From a virus: a DNA stretch of 64,000 bases. The stretch spans positions 1 to 64,000 of IMG/VR virus record IMGVR_UViG_3300044712_000340; one strand, written 5' to 3'. The position numbers were made by a program, and so were the translations under genes. The notes beneath the pieces were generated by a model. The model was not told the DNA's origin. It ran no database searches and saw only the letters and a program-made list of their open reading frames with translations. This document shows, piece after piece, positions 5,225 to 41,684 of this stretch. Position 1 is the stretch's first letter. Each line of letters starts with the position of its first letter.

Positions 5225-7474
5225 TTAAAAATCAAACTGTAAGTTACTATTAGCTAACATAGGATTTTGGGATTGTCTTCTATGATAGTTATTAGTTAGA
5301 AAAGCATCGTTAGCATATTCATCTTCATCATCATTATCTGTATTTCTTGTAGCTTCCACTTGTTTATATCTATCAGCCCTTAGTACAAATACCATATTAG
5401 CAGCAGACACTCTATCAAAGTTTCCATCTAAATTCCAGGATATACATTCTTGTAAGTAACCAAAAGACCTAATAGACTTAACATTTAAATTATACTCTAC
5501 TTTTTCTTCCCCTTCTGAATTTGTAATTATTATAGGTCTTTGTTTATTTTCACTTCTCATCCAATCTGCTTGTTGTTTTCTAGCCCAAGCATTTATTTGT
5601 ACAGATGCAGGAGTGCCATAAGATCTATTTCCTATAAGTCTAGCATCCTTTATATAATTCATATCTTTTAATATAGAAGGTGTTTCAGCAAGGTATCTTA
5701 ATTTATTCCTTCTATTAATATACTCATATAATCCTTTTCTATTATTCTCATAATTTATTTGAGCGTTATAAAATACAGCTAACTTTAGAGCTATGTCAAA
5801 ATTATCGTCTGCTAAAGGGTGTCTCCCTATCCATTCAGCTACAAATACATCATTCCATAAATCAAATACATGTACCCCAAATAGTGATATTCCATATGTT
5901 TTATATGTATCGTCGTCTACTGGGTCAATTCCGGCTATATATCTACCGTTAGGTATTTCTTTGCCTTTAGTGGCTTGAGGTAATTCGAATATCTCTATAG
6001 CCCCTAATAAGTTAGTACCTTTATAAGGCCACTCTCTAATAGGATGTTTATCAAATACAGGTTTATATTCTACCTTATCTGAGCCTATCCAGGTTAAATC
6101 TACTATATAGTGATTAGATAGAAATTGTTCTCTTGCAGGAGATATATTAGCTAAATGTTCTTTTAATTCATGTACAGGAAACTCTGAACCTTGTATTCTC
6201 ATAAAAGCTTCTTGAGGAGTTATAGGTTCTTCTGCCTTTACACGAGACAAGTACTGAGTATCATCAGAACTATATTTCACTTCTAACCTATGTTCTATAT
6301 CTTCTCCTAGTGCTTTTATTACGTCTGAATTTCCATCTCTATCATAACAGTCTGCCCTGTTGAGATAATCTGGTATAAATAAAGCACATGTGTTTTTTTC
6401 AGAGTTTTTATCAAATACATTTCTAATACCATAAACGTGATATGCTTTACATTTATAAAATAATTGCTCTAATCCTTGGAAGTTAGACGCTTCATCTCCT
6501 CCTGTACCAAAAGCTATTTGAAATCCAAATACCCTTTTACCGTCCTCTAATGATTTTAAAGCAATATTCCAAGATTGAATTAGATTAGGATTAGACCCCG
6601 ATTCTTCCCATGCTATAAGCTTTCCCCTTTTTCCTCTCGATTTCTGGGGATTATTTTTAAGGGTTACACCTATTCTTTCAGATTTAAACCCATATTTAGT
6701 AGAATCTCCAGGTTTAGTATATCCTGAAATTCTATGCATTAAAGAATCTTTTAAGGCTAACTTCTTACTAAACCCACAATGAGTATTAACAAAAGAGAAA
6801 TTATCATCTGCTTTATTTAATATACCATCTGCATCAAGATATTCTGATTCAGCAGCAAAAGCATATGATTTACTTTTAGATATAAGAAAGAAATTTCTAT
6901 TTAACATACTAGCTAACTTAAAAGAGTAACCTTTACCCCTAGCTTTAAGAGTTGCTCCATGCTTTCCTGCCTTTTCAGCTTGGTCTACATAGTGAAAAAA
7001 CATATAATCTCCATCCCATATATCAGGAAACCCTTCTACCCTATCTACTCTGCTAGCCTCACCTTCAACTCTTTTAGTTAATAGTATAGGCCCATAGTTA
7101 AGATAATAATAGTAGTATCCTGGTATCCATTCTCCATCCTCTTCTCTTACATATCCTTCAAGACACCTTCTAATTTCTTCATCCCAAAACTTCTTATAAG
7201 GACTGTTAGGACTTCTTGAAGGGTAATAAGGACAGTATTTGCCTGTAGTTAAAAAAGTCTCTCTTGTTTTAATAAAGTAAGACATATTTTCAAGTATATG
7301 AGGTCTAGACACGTCTACTATGATTCTACCTTTAGAATCTCTAGGCATGTCTTTAGATCTTGGACGATTAGGATTAATCATCCAATTAACAAGAGGAATA
7401 TTCAAAACTAAATTAGTTAATTCTGTATATCCCTCTGTACCTTGTTTAAATATATCTTCTACTTTACTAATCAT
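5225..7474 (-). CDS. terL: Terminase large subunit
   Basis: Walker A-like KARGKGYS, Walker B IAWEESG, FGTGG coupling motif, nuclease GIDP and GNFDRVSA. Confidence 0.93.
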   Translation of the reverse strand: MISKVEDIFKQGTEGYTELTNLVLNIPLVNWMINPNRPRSKDMPRDSKGRIIVDVSRPHILENMSYFIKTRETFLTTGKYCPYYPSRSPNSPYKKFWDEEIRRCLEGYVREEDGEWIPGYYYYYLNYGPILLTKRVEGEASRVDRVEGFPDIWDGDYMFFHYVDQAEKAGKHGATLKARGKGYSFKLASMLNRNFFLISKSKSYAFAAESEYLDADGILNKADDNFSFVNTHCGFSKKLALKDSLMHRISGYTKPGDSTKYGFKSERIGVTLKNNPQKSRGKRGKLIAWEESGSNPNLIQSWNIALKSLEDGKRVFGFQIAFGTGGDEASNFQGLEQLFYKCKAYHVYGIRNVFDKNSEKNTCALFIPDYLNRADCYDRDGNSDVIKALGEDIEHRLEVKYSSDDTQYLSRVKAEEPITPQEAFMRIQGSEFPVHELKEHLANISPAREQFLSNHYIVDLTWIGSDKVEYKPVFDKHPIREWPYKGTNLLGAIEIFELPQATKGKEIPNGRYIAGIDPVDDDTYKTYGISLFGVHVFDLWNDVFVAEWIGRHPLADDNFDIALKLAVFYNAQINYENNRKGLYEYINRRNKLRYLAETPSILKDMNYIKDARLIGNRSYGTPASVQINAWARKQQADWMRSENKQRPIIITNSEGEEKVEYNLNVKSIRSFGYLQECISWNLDGNFDRVSAANMVFVLRADRYKQVEATRNTDNDDEDEYANDAFLTNNYHRRQSQNPMLANSNLQFDF

Positions 7475-7647
7475 TTAGATTCATTAAACCTTTGTCCTAA
7501 CCAATTAGCAATATCAGCATCATATACTTTTTGTAAGTATTCTGCTGGATCTTCATGATTTGCAGTTATCAACTCTATCCTAGAATCTGATAATAAGTAA
7601 TTACCAAAAGATACTAAATCATCTAAGTTAAATTTTTGTTCTTCCAT
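7471..7647 (-). CDS. Small hypothetical protein (58 aa), not in ORF track
   Basis: MEEQKFNLDDLVSFGNYLLS..., fills gap, ATGA overlap with terL. Confidence 0.65.
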   Translation of the reverse strand: MEEQKFNLDDLVSFGNYLLSDSRIELITANHEDPAEYLQKVYDADIANWLGQRFNESK

Positions 7648-7648
7648 A

Positions 7649-7834
7649 TTATTTAATTTTAATTCTAATTCTTTTTCTTTGTATTAAAAGTTCAAGAAAT
7701 TCTTTAGTACTATTACACATTTTAGATATAGTAAGTTCTTCTGACCATACTCCAGATATAGGTTCAAGTACCTGATATACAGTACCTCTACTAAAATCAT
7801 TTACTTGTTTAGGGTAAATATAATCAGTCTCCAT
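7649..7834 (-). CDS. Hypothetical protein
   Basis: ORF packed in operon. Confidence 0.55.
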   Translation of the reverse strand: METDYIYPKQVNDFSRGTVYQVLEPISGVWSEELTISKMCNSTKEFLELLIQRKRIRIKIK

Positions 7835-8372
7835 CTTCGTAAATTCCTTTCTGTCCAGACCCTCTAATACTACCTTCTATTTCTTGTTCTTTTTTAATCT
7901 GTTCTTTAAGTTCTCTTATAGCTTGCATAAGTTTGGGAGATTCCTTTATAGAATCTATAACTTTCTTAGGATCATAAACCAAAGAACCTTTCATATCTCT
8001 TTCAGAATAATCTACATCATCAAAATATCTTCCGGTTTTATCAAGAGCATTTAATACCCTGTCAAGATATAAAGAAGTAGGTGTATGGCTTCTACTTTTA
8101 TAGAAATCAATAGCTTCTTGAGTAACTTTATCTATTTTTAGTTTATCAGATTCTGACATAGATAATAATATAGCCTCACTTCTCTCTTTTTCATCCCTTA
8201 TATCAGAATACTCTGACTTAGGATTGCACATAAAAGCAATGTAAGATAATTCAGATATACCATATCTTTTATCTTTATACTTATCTAATACCTTTTTAAA
8301 ACAAGATAATGTAAGTACTTGTGGGTTTATCTCTACCTCAAAATCATCATTAAATTCAAATAAACTATTCAT
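7824..8372 (-). CDS. Conserved protein upstream of terL, possible small terminase subunit
   Basis: 182 aa helical protein ending in RGSGQKGIYED; function inferred from position only. Confidence 0.45.
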   Translation of the reverse strand: MNSLFEFNDDFEVEINPQVLTLSCFKKVLDKYKDKRYGISELSYIAFMCNPKSEYSDIRDEKERSEAILLSMSESDKLKIDKVTQEAIDFYKSRSHTPTSLYLDRVLNALDKTGRYFDDVDYSERDMKGSLVYDPKKVIDSIKESPKLMQAIRELKEQIKKEQEIEGSIRGSGQKGIYEDGD

Positions 8373-8489: not shown

Positions 8490-8945
8490 CTAACAAGGTT
8501 TTACATTTACATCTAAAGTAGTTGTCGTATTACCTGTAATGGTATTATACTCTTGTTCTAATTCCTTAATTTCTTCTAATTCATCTATGTTAACATAAAC
8601 ATATTTTACTTCTCTTGAAGAAATAAACAAGTAAGGCTTTTTATCTATAATCTCAATAGGAGGAATAATTTCATAATTATCTGGCCCTATATCACTTACA
8701 GAACCTATTTGTCTAGCACCTTTGTTCTTTTTAGGAAATCTATCTACAAATAATTCTATTTCTTCTCCAGCACTAACATTAGCATTAGGCCCTGCTACAA
8801 GTACAGTCTGCCTTGATAATATTTCACCTGTTTCTTTTGATGTTAGTATAACTCCTCCAGGGGATATCTTTCTTGTATTTGCTGTAGTAATAATATGATC
8901 ATACATACATCTAATTGGCAACTTCTCTATTCTTTTCTTTTTCAT
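8490..8945 (-). CDS. GroES-like co-chaperonin fold protein
   Basis: IRCMYDHII..SPGGVIL..TVLVAGP..V.AGE resembles GroES mobile loop and strands. Confidence 0.6.
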   Translation of the reverse strand: MKKKRIEKLPIRCMYDHIITTANTRKISPGGVILTSKETGEILSRQTVLVAGPNANVSAGEEIELFVDRFPKKNKGARQIGSVSDIGPDNYEIIPPIEIIDKKPYLFISSREVKYVYVNIDELEEIKELEQEYNTITGNTTTTLDVNVKPC

Positions 8946-9159
8946 TTAACTTACTTCTATTTAATTTATTTTTAACTGCTAATTTACCAAATCCAGGTAA
9001 AGAAAAATTAGTCTTTACACCTTCTAAACTATCTAAATTCCTGTATACCTTCTTAGTAATATTCATTCTTATATAACTCATAAAAGTAGTAATAACACTT
9101 TTAACTGTATTTACTGGTATACCTAAAGTATCTGCTACTTCTTTAAATATTTCATCCAT
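8911..9159 (-). CDS. HU/IHF-like DNA-binding protein
   Basis: EVADTLGI..VKSVI..F and FSLPGFGKL motif. Confidence 0.7.
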   Translation of the reverse strand: MDEIFKEVADTLGIPVNTVKSVITTFMSYIRMNITKKVYRNLDSLEGVKTNFSLPGFGKLAVKNKLNRSKLNEKEKNREVAN

Positions 9160-9521
9160 TATAGAAACACTAACTTTAATTCAAAAGATTCTTTTGGTGG
9201 AATATAAGATGGATTTATACCTTTATCTTTAAGTGCTCCTTTCTTTCTAAGAATAGTAAGATAATTATGTAATACACCGTCCTTCATATTAAACTTAACC
9301 TTTATATTCTTCTTAACATCAATATCAAATAGTAACTTATTAATAAGTAAGTCATCATGTACAGGATATTTATTTACTATCTCATAATACTTTAATATTA
9401 ACTCTACTAATATATCTATTTCTTTATCTCTAAGGCTATGCCACTTATGAAGTGTATCTAGGTACAATCTAACTCTCTGCTCAACAGATGTTGATTTAAT
9501 AGGAATACTTATTGATTTCAT
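9159..9521 (-). CDS. Putative winged-helix protein; probable start at 9521
   Basis: NYLTILRKKG helix; promoter at 9540-9547 overlaps the longer track start. Confidence 0.5.
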   Translation of the reverse strand: MKSISIPIKSTSVEQRVRLYLDTLHKWHSLRDKEIDILVELILKYYEIVNKYPVHDDLLINKLLFDIDVKKNIKVKFNMKDGVLHNYLTILRKKGALKDKGINPSYIPPKESFELKLVFL

Positions 9522-9539
9522 GCCGCTTATTTTACAGTA

Positions 9540-9613
9540 CAAATATAAAACAAAAATAATTAAAACAAAATATAACCTATAATAAAAATTATATTATAAA
9601 TATAATACATTTG
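9540..9613. promoter_or_regulatory. Divergent pair of Bacteroidetes -7 elements
   Basis: TATATTTG on minus (9540-9547) and TACATTTG on plus (9606-9613). Confidence 0.65.
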
Positions 9614-9638
9614 TATTAACAAACAAATAAATTAAAAT

Positions 9639-9851
9639 ATGGAAAAATTAATTAAAGAATTTGAACGTATATGTGATCAAGGTATATACCCTTGGAAAAT
9701 GGCAAAAGAATGTACAGAAGTGAGCAAGAAAATAGCAATTAAATATTCTGATTATATTTACGATAATTTTCAATCCTATGACGGATTAGATTTACCTGTA
9801 TCACAAGAAGAACTATTTGATAAATTTATAGAAGAAGAATATGGAAAGTAA
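9639..9851 (+). CDS. Hypothetical protein
   Basis: ORF with AT-rich leader after promoter. Confidence 0.6.
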   Translation: MEKLIKEFERICDQGIYPWKMAKECTEVSKKIAIKYSDYIYDNFQSYDGLDLPVSQEELFDKFIEEEYGK

Positions 9852-35851: not shown

Positions 35852-36886
35852 ATGTGTTTAGTAGATGAGTTAGTAAATGAAAGCTTGTCTATTACAAACA
35901 TATTAAGGTATATTGATGATTACTCAATATATTCTAAATATATAGGAGAAGAGTTAGAGTTAAATACTTGTTACTCTTCTCCCATTAGAGAAGGGGATGA
36001 TATACCTTCCTTTTGTTTGTATAAGACAAATAATAAAATTAAATTCAAGGATTTTGCAAGAGCAGAACTGAAAGGAGATATTTTTGATTTTGTAAAAATA
36101 CTTATAGGAAAGGAAAAATTCAAAGAAATCCCCTTGTATAGAGTATTACAACAAATAGATTCTGATTTTCAATTAGGTCTATATACAGATGTAGGAGAGT
36201 TACCTAAACTACAAATAAGAAAAATAAGTGATATTAAAGTTAAAGATAAATACACTATTAATGTTACTTCCCACAAAATACCAACACAAGAATTTACAGA
36301 TTATTGGGAAAATAAATATGATATAACAGAGGATATATTAAAAATGTACAATTGTACCAATCCTCAAATATTACACTTTACCTCTAAATCAAATAAATTT
36401 CATGTATACCCTAAAAGTTTATGCATATCTTATCAGATAGGAGGAAAATATAAAATTTATTTTCCATTCGAACATAAATCAAAAAAATTCAGAAATGACT
36501 TTCCTTCCAATTGGGTAGAAGGTTATATGCAACTAAAAAGGAAGAATAATTTCTTTATTATAACTAAAGCCATGAAAGAAGTTATGTTTTTTAGAAAGCA
36601 TTTTGATTGGGACACAGTAGCAGGTAAATCAGAAACTACGATGATACCAAATCATCTTATGATAAAACTCTTTAATGATTATGAAAAAGGTTATATATGG
36701 TTAGATAGGGATGAAGCAGGTAGACAATCTCAAAAAGATTATATTGCTAAATACCCTAATTTAATACCAATAGTATATCCTGATTATATAACACAAAAAG
36801 ACGTAACTGATAGGTATGATTTTATGAAACAGGCTGGATTACAGCAAATTGCATTAAATGAAATAAAACAATTAATAAATAAATAA
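35852..36886 (+). CDS. DNA primase (TOPRIM)
   Basis: SPIRE.D..PSF, FKDF, WLDRDEAG, KDVTD. Confidence 0.85.
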   Translation: MCLVDELVNESLSITNILRYIDDYSIYSKYIGEELELNTCYSSPIREGDDIPSFCLYKTNNKIKFKDFARAELKGDIFDFVKILIGKEKFKEIPLYRVLQQIDSDFQLGLYTDVGELPKLQIRKISDIKVKDKYTINVTSHKIPTQEFTDYWENKYDITEDILKMYNCTNPQILHFTSKSNKFHVYPKSLCISYQIGGKYKIYFPFEHKSKKFRNDFPSNWVEGYMQLKRKNNFFIITKAMKEVMFFRKHFDWDTVAGKSETTMIPNHLMIKLFNDYEKGYIWLDRDEAGRQSQKDYIAKYPNLIPIVYPDYITQKDVTDRYDFMKQAGLQQIALNEIKQLINK

Positions 36887-36889
36887 AGT

Positions 36890-37498
36890 ATGAAAACAAT
36901 TAAATTAAAGTTATTAACTCAAAATCAATTACAACCAATTACAACAAATGCAAGTACTTTTGCAGAATTTAAAGCAGATGAACAAGTTAAAGCTTTAGGT
37001 ATTGATTGGAGTAGTCATAAATTAATAGACAGGGCTACAAGGGCTACATTTGAATTGGACGAAGCTAAGATGCCAGAAGTAGACTCCATCATGTTTGTTA
37101 CCCCTACTAAAACTAAATCAGGCATGTTATCTTATAAAGAAGCCAAAGAAGAAATTCAAAAACTTATATCTGAAGGTAAAATTGAGAAAATCAGTTGGGT
37201 AGGTAAATCCACTAAAGATTTGAATGATCTTTTACAAAAATCTTTTACAGAAAAAACTGGGAAATTAGTTACTGAAAAAGTAGCACAAGAATTAAACGAA
37301 AAGGATACTATTGTAGAAGAAATTCAAGAGTTACTTACTAAAGTATCTAACAAAGTAAATGAATTATCTAAATTATCAGGTAATGATACTTCTGTTCTTG
37401 CTAAAGAACTTAAAGAGTTTAAAGAAAACTTAGCAGATTTTGTCACTAATGATGATCTAACTAAGGAGTTAAAAGATATTCAAAGCAGACTTAAATAA
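36890..37498 (+). CDS. Ubiquitin-like (beta-grasp) protein with C-terminal extension
   Basis: 78-aa N-terminal domain ending KTKSG; adjacent E2/JAB/E1 genes. Confidence 0.6.
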   Translation: MKTIKLKLLTQNQLQPITTNASTFAEFKADEQVKALGIDWSSHKLIDRATRATFELDEAKMPEVDSIMFVTPTKTKSGMLSYKEAKEEIQKLISEGKIEKISWVGKSTKDLNDLLQKSFTEKTGKLVTEKVAQELNEKDTIVEEIQELLTKVSNKVNELSKLSGNDTSVLAKELKEFKENLADFVTNDDLTKELKDIQSRLK

Positions 37499-37502
37499 TA
37501 GT

Positions 37503-37524
37503 AAAGAGCCGAAAGGCTCTTTTT
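37503..37524 (+). terminator. Intrinsic terminator between Ubl and E2 genes
   Basis: AAAGAGCC-GAAA-GGCTCTTT-TT. Confidence 0.85.
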
Positions 37525-37543
37525 CATTTTAAATAGTTATAAA

Positions 37544-38743
37544 ATGGTGATACCAGAAGAATTATTAAAAATGTCAGAAAAAGAGCTTAAAGAGGCTCTA
37601 CCTGATAATATATTTAAAGCAACCTACATACAACATCACTCAGAAATATATAAAATACTACATAAATTAAATAAAATTTTAACTGTTTATTCTTACACTG
37701 ATAAAGTTATCACTACAATATCTAATCAATTACACGAGGATTACTATGAGCCTTTTACAATAAGTAGCTTTAAAATTGCAGTAGAAAGTAAGAGAGAAAA
37801 ATATTTAAAAACTTTAGATGTAGATAAGTTCATTAATTGGATAGAAAGTGTAGTAAAATCTTATATAGACGAAGATAAATATGATATACAAAAAATAAAT
37901 GAAAGTAGAGTAGAGTTAATACTATACTATCCTGAAATATCTATTACTAATAGTGTAGAATTTAAGCATACTTTAAGAGATGTATATTTAAAGTATATAT
38001 TTATTAAATCAAAAAATCTATGGGGATTTAATTCTATATCTATGTGTAGAAATACTTATACTGAAAAAGAATGGTTAGATTATTATATGCATTCTCATAT
38101 CGCTGTGTCTTACTTAAATTCATATTCTTCTAGTTTTTGTATGGGCAGTAATACTCCTACAAGTAACTTGTTAACTCAGTTTCAAAAAAATTTATTAAAA
38201 TTTAGAGAATTTATACTATTATTTGAAGCTTATTTAAGTTGGGAAAGCATAGAAGGTAAACCTTATAGGTATATAGAAAATGTATTGAAACCTATAGAAG
38301 CTAATTATGATTTTATAGGTTTAGAAGTTATACCTGATTACATTACTGTAGTATATACTTTAACTAAAAGAGTTTTAAGTATTTTACAAGATATACAATT
38401 TGACTATATTCCTCTTGTATTTAGTAGAAATTACACTATTATATTAAAACAATCTACTGTAGATGAAATAGATGAACTACTTACTAAAGAATACCCTGAG
38501 TATTGTTATACTGTTTTAGATGACAATACAGTAAAATTAAAAGAAAGAGTTAGATTAACTGTAAATGGTAAACATACTGATATTTATTTTAAAGGTGAGA
38601 ATAAATTAATAACTATAATCCCTGAAAAAGATACAGTTAAAGAAGATTTACCTATAAAAATACATAGAAGTTTATTAAATTCAGTAACAAAAGAGATTAA
38701 AGAGCAATTCGAACAATTTATAATTAATAAAATATTAGGATGA
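37544..38743 (+). CDS. Prokaryotic E2-like conjugating enzyme
   Basis: HSH(183-185)...FC199MG signature; operon context. Confidence 0.65.
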   Translation: MVIPEELLKMSEKELKEALPDNIFKATYIQHHSEIYKILHKLNKILTVYSYTDKVITTISNQLHEDYYEPFTISSFKIAVESKREKYLKTLDVDKFINWIESVVKSYIDEDKYDIQKINESRVELILYYPEISITNSVEFKHTLRDVYLKYIFIKSKNLWGFNSISMCRNTYTEKEWLDYYMHSHIAVSYLNSYSSSFCMGSNTPTSNLLTQFQKNLLKFREFILLFEAYLSWESIEGKPYRYIENVLKPIEANYDFIGLEVIPDYITVVYTLTKRVLSILQDIQFDYIPLVFSRNYTIILKQSTVDEIDELLTKEYPEYCYTVLDDNTVKLKERVRLTVNGKHTDIYFKGENKLITIIPEKDTVKEDLPIKIHRSLLNSVTKEIKEQFEQFIINKILG

Positions 38744-39759
38744 AAGAAGAAAATATAGGAGTGATTGGTACACTTAAAATAAGTAAAAGATTACAAAAGA
38801 TAATAGATTATCTTCATTATAAAATAGGATCTGTAGAGTGGTCAGGAGTTTTATACTATAAATTAACTAAAGGTAATTTAGAGGATTTAGAAGATTTAGA
38901 ATTTGAGGCTACTTTTATGTATCCTATGAATATAGGATCTTCAACATATACTGAGTTTGATTACAATGGAGAACTAGTATCTGCTTATGATATATTTGAG
39001 GAAGGACTTGAGCAATCTACATCTCTCATACATACACATCATTCTATGGGAGCATTTCATTCTGGTACAGATTTAAAAGAACTTACAGATAATGCAGATA
39101 AATATAATTATTATCTATCATTAGTAGTAAATTTCTCACATACTTATTGTGCTAAATTAGCTATTCCTTCTACTGAAATTGTAAATTATACCTCATATAT
39201 TAAAAATCAAGAAGGTAAATTGGTTAATTTTCATGGAGAAAGAGAAGAGAAGATACTCCTTATAGGTGATTTAAATATTGTATTTGAAGAAGAAGTAACT
39301 AATGAATCTTGGCTAGATGAGAGAATAAAAACACTACAAGAAAAGTCTAAAGAACAAAAAATTAGATTTAAAGATGCTAATGTTTTTGATATAGGTCTAC
39401 CTAACTTTGGTTTTGATAGATTTAAAGAAAATCTAAAAAGTTCTATAAGTGCTACTACAGAAGTAACTACAGATAAATTTCTAGCTTCTTTACTTTCTTT
39501 AAATGAAAAGATTACAGATAGTTTTGAAGCTATTCTTAAATTGCATTTAGATGCTACAGAAGAAGAATTAGATATACTTGAAGAGGCATTAGAGTCTAAT
39601 TACGAAATTATACATGAGAATTTGTATGGTATGGATGCTGATATAAGAAGTGACTCTATAAATGCTTTACATGAGTTGAATAAATATCTCTCTAAGTATG
39701 GAAAGTATAAAATATTTGATGTTTTAGATTTAATACTATCTAGCTATGTCGCAATTTAA
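38740..39759 (+). CDS. JAB/MPN+ metallopeptidase
   Basis: E33 (EWSG), H98-x-H100, S108, D111. Confidence 0.85.
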   Translation: MKEENIGVIGTLKISKRLQKIIDYLHYKIGSVEWSGVLYYKLTKGNLEDLEDLEFEATFMYPMNIGSSTYTEFDYNGELVSAYDIFEEGLEQSTSLIHTHHSMGAFHSGTDLKELTDNADKYNYYLSLVVNFSHTYCAKLAIPSTEIVNYTSYIKNQEGKLVNFHGEREEKILLIGDLNIVFEEEVTNESWLDERIKTLQEKSKEQKIRFKDANVFDIGLPNFGFDRFKENLKSSISATTEVTTDKFLASLLSLNEKITDSFEAILKLHLDATEEELDILEEALESNYEIIHENLYGMDADIRSDSINALHELNKYLSKYGKYKIFDVLDLILSSYVAI

Positions 39760-40405
39760 TGATAGATTTAAAGACGCTCCTTGGTACAATCAAAGTTGTA
39801 ATGAAGAAATATTAGTTGTAGGAGCAGGAGGTATAGGCTCTAATTTTGTTTATTGCTTGGGTAAATCTACTTTAATGAGAATATTTTTAATGGATTCAGA
39901 TAAAGTAGAATATCACAATGTAGGTACACAGTTTTTCACAAAAGAAGATGTAGGGAGTAATAAAGTACGGGCAATGTATGAATACATGAGTAAATGTAAT
40001 AGGTACATTGGTACGATACAAAGAAGGTATGATAGCTCATTTTCTCCAATTATGGTAGCTGCTGTAGATAACATGAAAACTAGAAAAGAGATATTCGATG
40101 CATGGAGGCAAAAAGAAAATAGAGAGCTATTACTTGATGGTAGATTGCGTGCAAATTATTATGAAATTTATGCTGTTATTTCAGGTAAGGAAGATGAATA
40201 TGAAAAAACATTATTCTTAGATTCAGAAGTAGACTCAGGGCCTTGTACATTTAAGCAAACAGCTTATTTTGGTATGTTGATAGGAGCTAGAATGACACAA
40301 ATAATAGTTAATTACTTAACTAATAAGTATTCAGAAGAACCTATTTGTAATGTACCATTTAAAGTCAGTGAATTTGGTGAACCTTTTAGTATAGAAATAT
40401 TATGA
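39746..40405 (+). CDS. ThiF/E1-like activating enzyme
   Basis: GAGGIG, D.D.VE..N...Q, AVDN...R, DGR, Cys167. Confidence 0.9.
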   Translation: MSQFNDRFKDAPWYNQSCNEEILVVGAGGIGSNFVYCLGKSTLMRIFLMDSDKVEYHNVGTQFFTKEDVGSNKVRAMYEYMSKCNRYIGTIQRRYDSSFSPIMVAAVDNMKTRKEIFDAWRQKENRELLLDGRLRANYYEIYAVISGKEDEYEKTLFLDSEVDSGPCTFKQTAYFGMLIGARMTQIIVNYLTNKYSEEPICNVPFKVSEFGEPFSIEIL

Positions 40406-40902
40406 TTTTAAAAAGAAATGATAAGATTTTACCATTGATTTTTACTTTGCCTGAGTATGAGAATTCTAAGTATATAGACCTAGTGTTTCCAACTTATTGT
40501 TCTACTGTGTATAAAGAATCAGCATATAATTTTGTTACTGATAATAATCATGGGTATGTACATAGAACAAGGTATAATGAGTACTATAAGACTTTCTATT
40601 TAGGAATAATAGATAAAAAAGAAGAAAGTATAATTTCAATGTTAGTAAAGTACAATAATGAAAATTATTTATTATTATGTAAAGATTTTGCAGAAAAAAA
40701 CACAAGTGCTACAAGAAAAATAAAGAAAAGCGCAGTAGAAACATATAACATAGATGTAAAAAAGAAATTAATACTAGCTGAAGAAAGCGAATTATATGAA
40801 TATTATTTAAAACTTATAAGTCCTACATTTGAAGATTATAAACAAGAGAATAAAGTAAAATTAGCTAAAGAATTTATAGAATGGAAGAAAAACAACGATT
40901 AG
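40402..40902 (+). CDS. Hypothetical protein coupled to E1 gene
   Basis: ATGA overlap. Confidence 0.65.
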   Translation: MILKRNDKILPLIFTLPEYENSKYIDLVFPTYCSTVYKESAYNFVTDNNHGYVHRTRYNEYYKTFYLGIIDKKEESIISMLVKYNNENYLLLCKDFAEKNTSATRKIKKSAVETYNIDVKKKLILAEESELYEYYLKLISPTFEDYKQENKVKLAKEFIEWKKNND

Positions 40903-41684
40903 CTTTAATAGATTTAGATACTTTAATTTATATTGTGGCTTATAATCAACACAAGAATGGTAATAGAGACAATTCTGCACTAGTAAAACTACATGTAAAG
41001 GAATTTATATCTACCATTCTTGTAAGGTGTAGAGCTAACTTAGTTTCTATGGTTTATCAAGACAAAGGACACAGTAACTTTAGAAAGTATTTTTATCCTG
41101 ATTATAAAGCTAATAGACCAGAAGCTCCTGAATTTATAGTATTATGGAAAGATACTATAATAGAGATTTTCTCAGAAATAGGGGCTGTAGGTGTCAAAGT
41201 AATAGAATCAGATGATGTATTAAATATAGGGTACAATAGATTTAAAAATGAATATGATTTAATAATAGTTTCAGGGGATAAAGATTTAAATCAAATACCA
41301 GGTGAACATTACAATCCTAGAGAAAACAAAAGTTATGTTGTTAGTAACAAGGAGGCATTGTATAATCTTAGTTTACAGTTACTTATGGGGGATTCTACAG
41401 ATAATGTGAAAGCTATCCCTAAAATGGGAACTAAAATATCCTCTAAACTTTTAAATGAAGTATTAGGAAATACTGATTTAACTTTTTCTTTTATAGGTAT
41501 TTGTTATGATCAGTATAGAAAAGCTTTTGGAGATATTTGGTATTCTGAGTATTTAAAAACTAAGTTTTTAGTGACAATGTTACCTGAAATAGATTATAAT
41601 TCTTATCCATTTAATCAAGAAGTATCTGAATTATTTAATATAATACCTTGTTCTAATTTAATAGTAACTAGTGTATTTATGTAA
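40881..41684 (+). CDS. 5'-3' exonuclease / RNase H (FEN-like)
   Basis: IDLD, YKANR, ESDD, SGDKDL.Q, GDSTDNV. Confidence 0.92.
   Translation: MEEKQRLALIDLDTLIYIVAYNQHKNGNRDNSALVKLHVKEFISTILVRCRANLVSMVYQDKGHSNFRKYFYPDYKANRPEAPEFIVLWKDTIIEIFSEIGAVGVKVIESDDVLNIGYNRFKNEYDLIIVSGDKDLNQIPGEHYNPRENKSYVVSNKEALYNLSLQLLMGDSTDNVKAIPKMGTKISSKLLNEVLGNTDLTFSFIGICYDQYRKAFGDIWYSEYLKTKFLVTMLPEIDYNSYPFNQEVSELFNIIPCSNLIVTSVFM

Follow-up and report, generated by a model that had tools for sequence, protein, structure and literature searches.

A predicted ubiquitin-like modification cassette beside the primase gene of crAss-like phages

A cassette of four adjacent genes that may encode a ubiquitin-like protein modification system was found beside the primase gene of a crAss-like phage. 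The analysed stretch of DNA, hereafter the window, comprised positions 1 to 64,000 (64,000 nucleotides, nt) of the IMG/VR virus record IMGVR_UViG_3300044712_000340, a complete record of 93.5 kb with direct terminal repeats. The virus was regarded as a crAss-like phage because its major capsid protein shared 49% identity with that of Cellulophaga phage phi14:2 and 46% with that of Bacteroides phage crAss001. The cassette (36890–40405) consisted of four consecutive plus-strand genes for a putative precursor of a ubiquitin-like protein (Ubl), an E2-like protein, a JAB/JAMM metallopeptidase and a minimal E1 (ThiF-type adenylyltransferase). This layout had been described in an initial annotation made from the sequence alone. 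Translations and a codon check reproduced it, and all residues named there were at their positions. Their conservation among relatives shows that their occurrence is not accidental.

We hypothesize that the four proteins form a phage Ubl modification system acting by a thioester cascade, a reading to which we assign a probability of roughly 0.55. The Ubl would be synthesized as a precursor and cut past Gly78 by the JAB peptidase, yielding a beta-grasp domain with a free C-terminal glycine. The E1 would adenylate Gly78 with ATP, then hold the Ubl on Cys167 as a thioester and hand it on to Cys199 of the E2-like protein. The additional N- and C-terminal domains of the E2-like protein may choose the targets, and the Ubl may end on lysines of phage or host proteins. 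The JAB peptidase may also reverse the modification.

The first gene (36890–37498) encoded a protein of 202 amino acids (aa), of which residues 1–78 (36890–37123) are predicted with high confidence to be a ubiquitin-like beta-grasp domain. In the AlphaFold2 model, constructed with 22 relatives, residues 1–70 had predicted local distance difference test (pLDDT) scores of 95–98, confidence dipped at residues 71–80 and helices followed. The strand order was strand-strand-helix-strand-strand. With Foldseek against the Protein Data Bank (PDB), the domain aligned to whole ubiquitin, NEDD8, ISG15 and UBX over approximately 76 columns, with 18–20% identity, target template modelling (TM) scores of 0.64–0.72 and root-mean-square deviations of 2.4–2.8 Å. 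Given the small size of the domain, the E-values were moderate (1e-3 to 1e-2). The initial annotation had made its proposal depend on a beta-grasp fold in this product, and both the model and the Foldseek matches supported that fold. The domain ended in K74-T-K-S-G78, corresponding to the family pattern P-x-K-x-K-S-G, and the Gly78 codon (37121–37123) marks the proposed site of cleavage and activation. Across the alignment of the 22 relatives, K76 and G78 were at least 90% conserved. The equivalent residues were KIKSG in gp79 of crAss001 and QVKSG in gp53 of the Flavobacterium phage FpV4.

The third gene (38740–39759, plus strand; 339 aa) encoded the JAB/JAMM metallopeptidase. Its catalytic domain (approximately residues 1–190), which was followed by a helical C-terminal domain, contained the canonical E...HxHx7SxxD motif as E33 and H98-T-H100...S108-G-T-D111 (39031–39072). 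All five motif residues, described as intact in the initial annotation, were present and invariant in 20 relatives. Similarity to the Pfam family Prok-JAB (PF14464) was weak: the protein of the window scored 13.5 bits, below the Pfam cut-off of 25, and 15 of the 20 relatives gave sub-threshold matches (best 1.4e-4), with no other family consistently matched. A PDB profile search with the JAB family gave nothing relevant.

The fourth gene (39746–40405, plus strand; 219 aa) encoded the E1. It matched the Pfam family ThiF (PF00899) over residues 20–193 with 57.7 bits (cut-off 28.1; E-value 1.2e-15), and its family profile matched the solved structures of UBA5 (1.2e-14) and of MccB, UBA3, MoeB and ThiF (1e-14 to 1e-11). 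The previously noted Rossmann motif (G26-A-G-G-I-G31) and Cys167 were both confirmed. In addition to C167, the residues D50, D52, N58, K73, D108-N109, R113 and R133 were invariant in 19 relatives, and by sequence they would correspond to the ATP- and Mg-site roles of MoeB and ThiF. C167 (codon 40244–40246) lies 59 residues past the DN motif; the spacing in MoeB and ThiF is 57. The product annotated as 'ThiF' in crAss001 (gp76; L029:4536-5693) was 385 aa long, with the E1 domain at residues 152–383 only. Either this protein has an additional N-terminal domain, or its annotated start is too far upstream and overlaps the JAB gene.

The second gene (37544–38743, plus strand) encoded the E2-like protein of 399 aa. 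Its assignment is critical to the proposed cascade and is the weakest of the four. The structure model (139 relatives) had a pLDDT of 95.1 and a predicted TM (pTM) score of 0.86, and contained three domains: a small N-terminal beta domain (approximately residues 1–70), a central UBC-like domain (approximately residues 90–250; 37811–38293) and a C-terminal alpha/beta domain. In the central domain, one helix was followed by four long antiparallel strands, a loop of 25 residues and further helices. In a structure search of 48,161 chains, independent of Foldseek, approximately 30 of the best 33 matches were E2, UEV or RWD structures. They included bacterial Cap2, and each covered most of an E2; the Z-scores of these structural neighbours were modest (5–6). 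A second structure search had the same outcome. The UBC-like fold on which the initial annotation had staked the E2 assignment was, at these Z-scores, suggested for the central domain by structure search. In a language-model look-up with residues 86–262, the top-ranked clusters were those of Prok-E2_D / PRTRC protein B (0.89, with 180 of 256 features shared), which serves as a lead only.

The candidate catalytic residues of the E2-like protein were H183-S-H185, C199 (codon 38138–38140) and G201. H185 and C199 were invariant in all 139 relatives, and C199 was the only invariant one of three cysteines. In E2s, the catalytic cysteine is found in the loop that joins strand 4 to the following helix. 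The corresponding loop of the model (residues 179–204) carried S184-H185 and C199-x-G201. An invariant block, YLSWESxEGxPY, was present at residues 230–241. The N- and C-terminal domains were likewise confidently modelled, with no clear structural match. The N-terminal domain (residues 1–72; 37544–37760) was preceded by a conserved helix, EELxKxSEKEL. The C-terminal domain (residues 263–399; 38330–38740) contained a strand-strand-helix-strand-strand stretch with faint matches to SAMP1/MoaD (E-values 0.03–0.04), and could be a second beta-grasp domain.

Several observations weigh against a conjugation cascade, most of them concerning the E2-like protein. Foldseek found no significant PDB match for its model, with Ufc1 only at rank 38 (E-value 0.17). 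None of the E2 families in Pfam, NCBIfam and PADLOC was matched among 27 E2-like members; for the Pfam families UQ_con and Prok-E2_A to E, this held at E-values up to 0.1. A PDB profile search with the family gave nothing relevant. Two E2-like alignments compared by hhalign with five PRTRC protein B (PF14460) proteins gave probabilities below 1%. Cys199 can also be assigned to the E2 active site only approximately: linear interpolation of the aligned ranges, rather than residue-level superposition, mapped the E2 cysteine near model residues 192–199, with the catalytic residues C85 of UbcH5b and C93 of Ubc9 as references. The HPN motif was absent and was replaced by Y-x-(F/H)-S-H185, 14 residues before C199 and without the Pro-Asn, a deviation of a kind that is also frequent in prokaryotic E2 families. 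Among the other components, the E1 had a single domain of only 219 aa, its PDB matches were confined to the N-terminal half, and the C-terminal half had no sequence match to a solved E1. The Ubl ended in a single Ser-Gly, in contrast to the Gly-Gly that is usual, and neither a target nor an E3 or adaptor was evident.

Further searches with or for the E2-like family were similarly negative. A scan of the whole phage genome with PF14460 gave no match, and a word-indexed search with the central domain returned only four close relatives and no bridge to Prok-E2_D. Contig scans with the protein B alignment, which was small and held five homologues only, gave 0 loci in genomes and 1 locus in viral contigs. 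A BFVD search with the model found only uncharacterized crAss-like proteins.

The lack of recognition by any sequence method leaves room for a reading in which the 399-aa protein is not an E2 and the Ubl is a sulfur carrier. The Ubl, trimmed by the JAB peptidase and adenylated by the E1 as in ThiS/MoaD, CysO-Mec or QbsE-QbsD systems, would be converted to a thiocarboxylate that gives sulfur to a nucleotide, a DNA base or a small molecule used in replication, with the 399-aa protein as a relay or acceptor via Cys199. Sulfur metabolism offers established cases of a Ubl, a JAB peptidase and an E1 that occur together without conjugation (Iyer et al. 2006, PMC1779556). The best NCBIfam matches of the E1 were the ThiF and MoeB models, and the cassette was surrounded by genes of nucleotide and DNA metabolism. 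However, the initial annotation had reported no adjacent sulfur-transfer genes, and scans of the flanks likewise showed no rhodanese, cysteine desulfurase, sulfur-acceptor or cofactor gene, nor did the cassette itself contain one. Structure searches placed the 399-aa protein near E2, UEV and RWD proteins, not near sulfurtransferases. The Ubl was closest to ubiquitin, NEDD8 and ISG15, and its Ser-Gly end differed from the Gly-Gly typical of sulfur carriers. We therefore consider a sulfur-carrier role unlikely.

The conjugation reading was also evaluated against the distribution of the cassette. Scanning IMG/VR with a pattern of the 399-aa family yielded 27 related loci, in which genes were found by iterative searches. 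The Ubl-E2-JAB-E1 order was complete in every one of these loci that was sufficiently long, and a primase gene was located upstream in 23 of the 27, with helicase and Sak4-like genes further up. In FpV4, the primase gene was followed by UDG, three genes annotated as 'hypothetical' and a 'thiamine biosynthesis protein'. In crAss001, the order was primase (gp80), hypothetical (gp79 and gp78), 'metalloprotease domain' (gp77) and 'ThiF' (gp76); the suspicion that ThiF and JAB genes were already annotated singly in crAss-like phages was thereby borne out. The four family profiles matched the FpV4 and crAss001 genes at E-values of 2e-20 to 5e-85. When the full library was searched with the profile of the 399-aa family, 3261 representative clusters were retrieved. 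By tblastn, an E1 homologue was found in 75 phage records and a capsid homologue in 117, and the cassette may therefore not be universal in the group. Phage phi14:2 had the closest capsid protein (49%), yet was not among the 75 records, and several other crAss-like records matched with the capsid only.

Inserts of approximately 1.1–1.2 kb interrupted the genes in three of the related loci. In L023 and L026 both the JAB and the E1 gene were split (L023:6393-7500 and 8530-9754), and in L008 the E1 gene alone (7127-8191). Each insert contained an open reading frame (ORF) for a LAGLIDADG homing endonuclease (Pfam PF14528; 1e-9 to 1e-14), and these inserts are probably introns in conserved parts of the genes.

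The distribution of the cassette bears on the possibility that the cassette mainly disturbs host Bil or type II CBASS, either with decoy Ubl, E1 or E2 proteins or with a JAB peptidase that strips conjugates. Both defence systems employ the same enzyme types against phages (PMC11601596), and a JAB peptidase could reverse host conjugates. A 2026 preprint (10.64898/2026.03.05.709809) reads a UBA5-like protein family of gut phages in this way, in a passing mention. In contrast to anti-defence genes, which usually are variable accessories, the cassette was fixed beside the primase across divergent Bacteroides and Flavobacterium phages, and its E2-like family spanned thousands of clusters. For stripping, moreover, a deconjugating enzyme alone would be enough. 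Counter-defence as the main function is, in our estimate, about as improbable as sulfur transfer.

The part of the Ubl protein beyond Gly78 was variable. In the window, the model of residues 79–202 (37124–37495) showed a helix-loop-helix and then a helix of 55 residues. Tail length among homologues ranged from 2 to about 210 residues, with most tails at 60–210 residues. The tail was the least conserved part of the protein, whereas the beta-grasp domain and its terminal glycine were the most conserved. The end of the tail formed an amphipathic helix (L..EA......L), which was conserved even where the remaining tail varied. In loci L011 and L007, the homologues ended 2 and 4 residues past the glycine; the tail was absent, yet the E2-like, JAB and E1 genes were intact with all catalytic residues. 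The conserved glycine at the end of the fold, the variable tails and the tail-less variants together give the pattern of a precursor modifier that is trimmed at the glycine.

The opposite arrangement, in which the beta-grasp is a removable N-terminal domain, the JAB peptidase frees a helical passenger, and the E1 and the 399-aa protein act elsewhere, appears quite improbable. The long tails with their conserved C-terminal helix would suit such a passenger, and phage Ubl-JAB pairs without conjugation have been proposed, e.g. lambda proteins I and K (PMC1779556). The tail-less homologues with intact partner genes contradict it and speak against the tail as the essential product. Conservation was highest in the part that would be discarded and lowest in the supposed passenger, and the complete adenylation site of the E1 would have no explanation. 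An E1 that adenylates a peptide (as MccB and PaaA do) or a nucleoside (TcdA) instead of the neighbouring beta-grasp domain is very improbable: although PaaA and TcdA joined MccB among the structures matched by the E1 profile, a fixed cassette that pairs the E1 with a JAB peptidase and with a beta-grasp domain with a conserved terminal glycine is the hallmark of Ubl activation, no precursor-peptide gene was evident, and the 219-aa protein lacks the peptide-clamp domain found at the N-terminus of MccB.

The gene layout offers a possible view on the expression of the proposed conjugation system. The E2-like, JAB and E1 genes were coupled by overlapping stops and starts, with an ATGA at the E2/JAB junction and a 14-nt overlap between the JAB and E1 genes. 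The Ubl gene was set apart from these three by 45 nt. This gap contained a terminator-like hairpin (37503–37522, plus strand) with an 8-bp stem, a GAAA loop and a T-run. A strong hairpin with a T-run occupied the same gap in most relatives (gaps of L001–L025). Its stem sequences differed among them, so that conservation lies in the structure and not in the sequence. Retention of the hairpin suggests a conserved drop in transcription after the Ubl gene; the modifier would then be produced in larger amounts than the three enzymes.

Of the flanking genes, the one upstream (35852–36886, plus strand) matched PHROG 12622 'DNA primase' (1.4e-26) and is regarded as context, not as a component. The initial annotation had placed the cassette between the primase and a 5'-3' exonuclease. 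The primase was indeed adjacent, but the exonuclease gene (40881–41684) did not adjoin the E1 gene, since an ORF of 166 aa (40402–40902, plus strand) intervened. The start of this ORF overlapped the E1 stop, and its product had no Pfam or PHROG match. It was rejected as a fifth component, with homologues in only 6 of the 27 related loci (the closest ones), and its membership in the system is doubtful. FpV4 and crAss001 had unrelated-looking genes at this position. The constant position of the cassette next to the primase may point to a connection with replication, but it is no proof of one.

Toolkits of this kind have to date been investigated only in cells and as part of bacterial defence. 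Bacterial Ubl conjugation has been demonstrated only recently, and so far as host anti-phage defence (type II CBASS, Bil and Bub). Here, the same toolkit was found on the phage side, where it keeps its place next to the primase in a very large, diverse range of crAss-like phages. In the reference genomes only 'ThiF' and 'metalloprotease' carry names, which leaves two of the four genes without one. No description of the cassette in crAss-like phages was found in the literature searched, which excluded subscription journals, and an earlier mention is possible. We see an even chance that crAss-like phages run their own Ubl conjugation in the replication module, with a sequence-orphan E2 family that carries targeting domains, and that they tag replisome or host proteins. 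If true, this would be pro-viral Ubl conjugation from a virus of bacteria, a mirror of the host Bil defence, in a highly abundant group of human-gut phages. Should the 399-aa protein prove to be a functional E2, it would represent an E2 family that is invisible to current sequence models. The cassette is present in the cultured pairs crAss001/Bacteroides intestinalis and FpV4/Flavobacterium psychrophilum, and the role of the phage Ubl is therefore directly testable.

Among the known systems, the cassette could be compared with one other phage arrangement and four bacterial ones. Protein I of lambda/T1 phages combines a beta-grasp domain with a conserved terminal glycine and a further domain, and the JAB domain of protein K is predicted to cut at the glycine (PMC1779556). 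The I-K pair is located in the tail module rather than the replication module, and lacks an E1 and an E2-like protein. In type II CBASS, Cap2 is an E1-E2 fusion and Cap3 a JAB peptidase; the Cap2 substrate is a CD-NTase, not a beta-grasp Ubl, and no CD-NTase or effector was present with the phage cassette. Bub (formerly 6E / DUF6527; BubAB, BubCD and BubE) also has the Ubl-E2-JAB-E1 toolkit, with JAB processing of a Ubl precursor (PMC11601596). Unlike the phage cassette with its four separate proteins, Bub has Ubl-E2 and JAB-E1 fusions (BubAB/BubCD) or an E2-E1 fusion (BubBD), together with a DUF6527 serine protease; DUF6527 had no match among the scanned neighbour genes. Catalytic cysteines are missing from the E1 and E2 of Bub, which use oxyester chemistry (PMC11601596). 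The invariance of the candidate cysteines Cys167 and Cys199 therefore sets the phage cassette apart from Bub and aligns it with the chemistry of Bil and CBASS.

PRTRC (ParB-related, ThiF-related cassette) was another close system. The reference operon is ParB-E-C-F-B-A-ThiF, and its core C-B-A-ThiF has the same order of Ubl, E2, JAB and E1. The PRTRC E1 is likewise short and single-domain (hhalign probability 97%, E-value 4.7e-11 against the phage E1), and the metal-site motif of the JAB proteins is nearly identical (probability 89.6%, E-value 1.9e-6 against protein A, over 22 columns at this motif only). Protein C also has a C-terminal extension, and protein B has a C-x-G motif. No significant similarity between the phage Ubl and protein C was found by hhalign; the one match, a 6-residue stretch with SKSG located well away from where the protein C fold ends, was regarded as chance. 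In contrast to PRTRC, the phage cassette lacked ParB, E and F proteins, and its E2-like protein of 399 aa had two extra domains and no profile similarity to protein B. Against the PRTRC equivalogs (NCBIfam TIGR03734-03742), the E1 scored 44.1 bits, with a cut-off of 144.75 for PRTRC_ThiF, and the other three proteins matched none. PRTRC is located on plasmids and integrative elements, whereas the phage cassette stands beside the primase on a lytic phage genome. No functional study of PRTRC was found among the papers listed in the literature search.

Bil (types I and II) shares with the cassette the complete order Ubl-E2-JAB-E1 (BilA-B-C-D). It has no E3, and its E2 is thought to choose the targets (PMC11601596). 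Both systems have a candidate catalytic cysteine in the E1 and the E2, and a ubiquitin/ISG15-like Ubl matured, in the phage case putatively, at a C-terminal glycine. BilD, however, is composed of an inactive and an active adenylation domain and a cysteine domain, whereas the phage E1 is a single domain of 219 aa. The PADLOC models for BilA, BilB and BilC were unmatched, and BilD matched only the Rossmann part of the E1 (residues 20–116; 1.3e-6). Bil is a host defence, whereas the cassette described here is encoded by a phage. By these features the cassette falls outside Bil, PRTRC, Bub and CBASS, yet it shares with them the same four roles.

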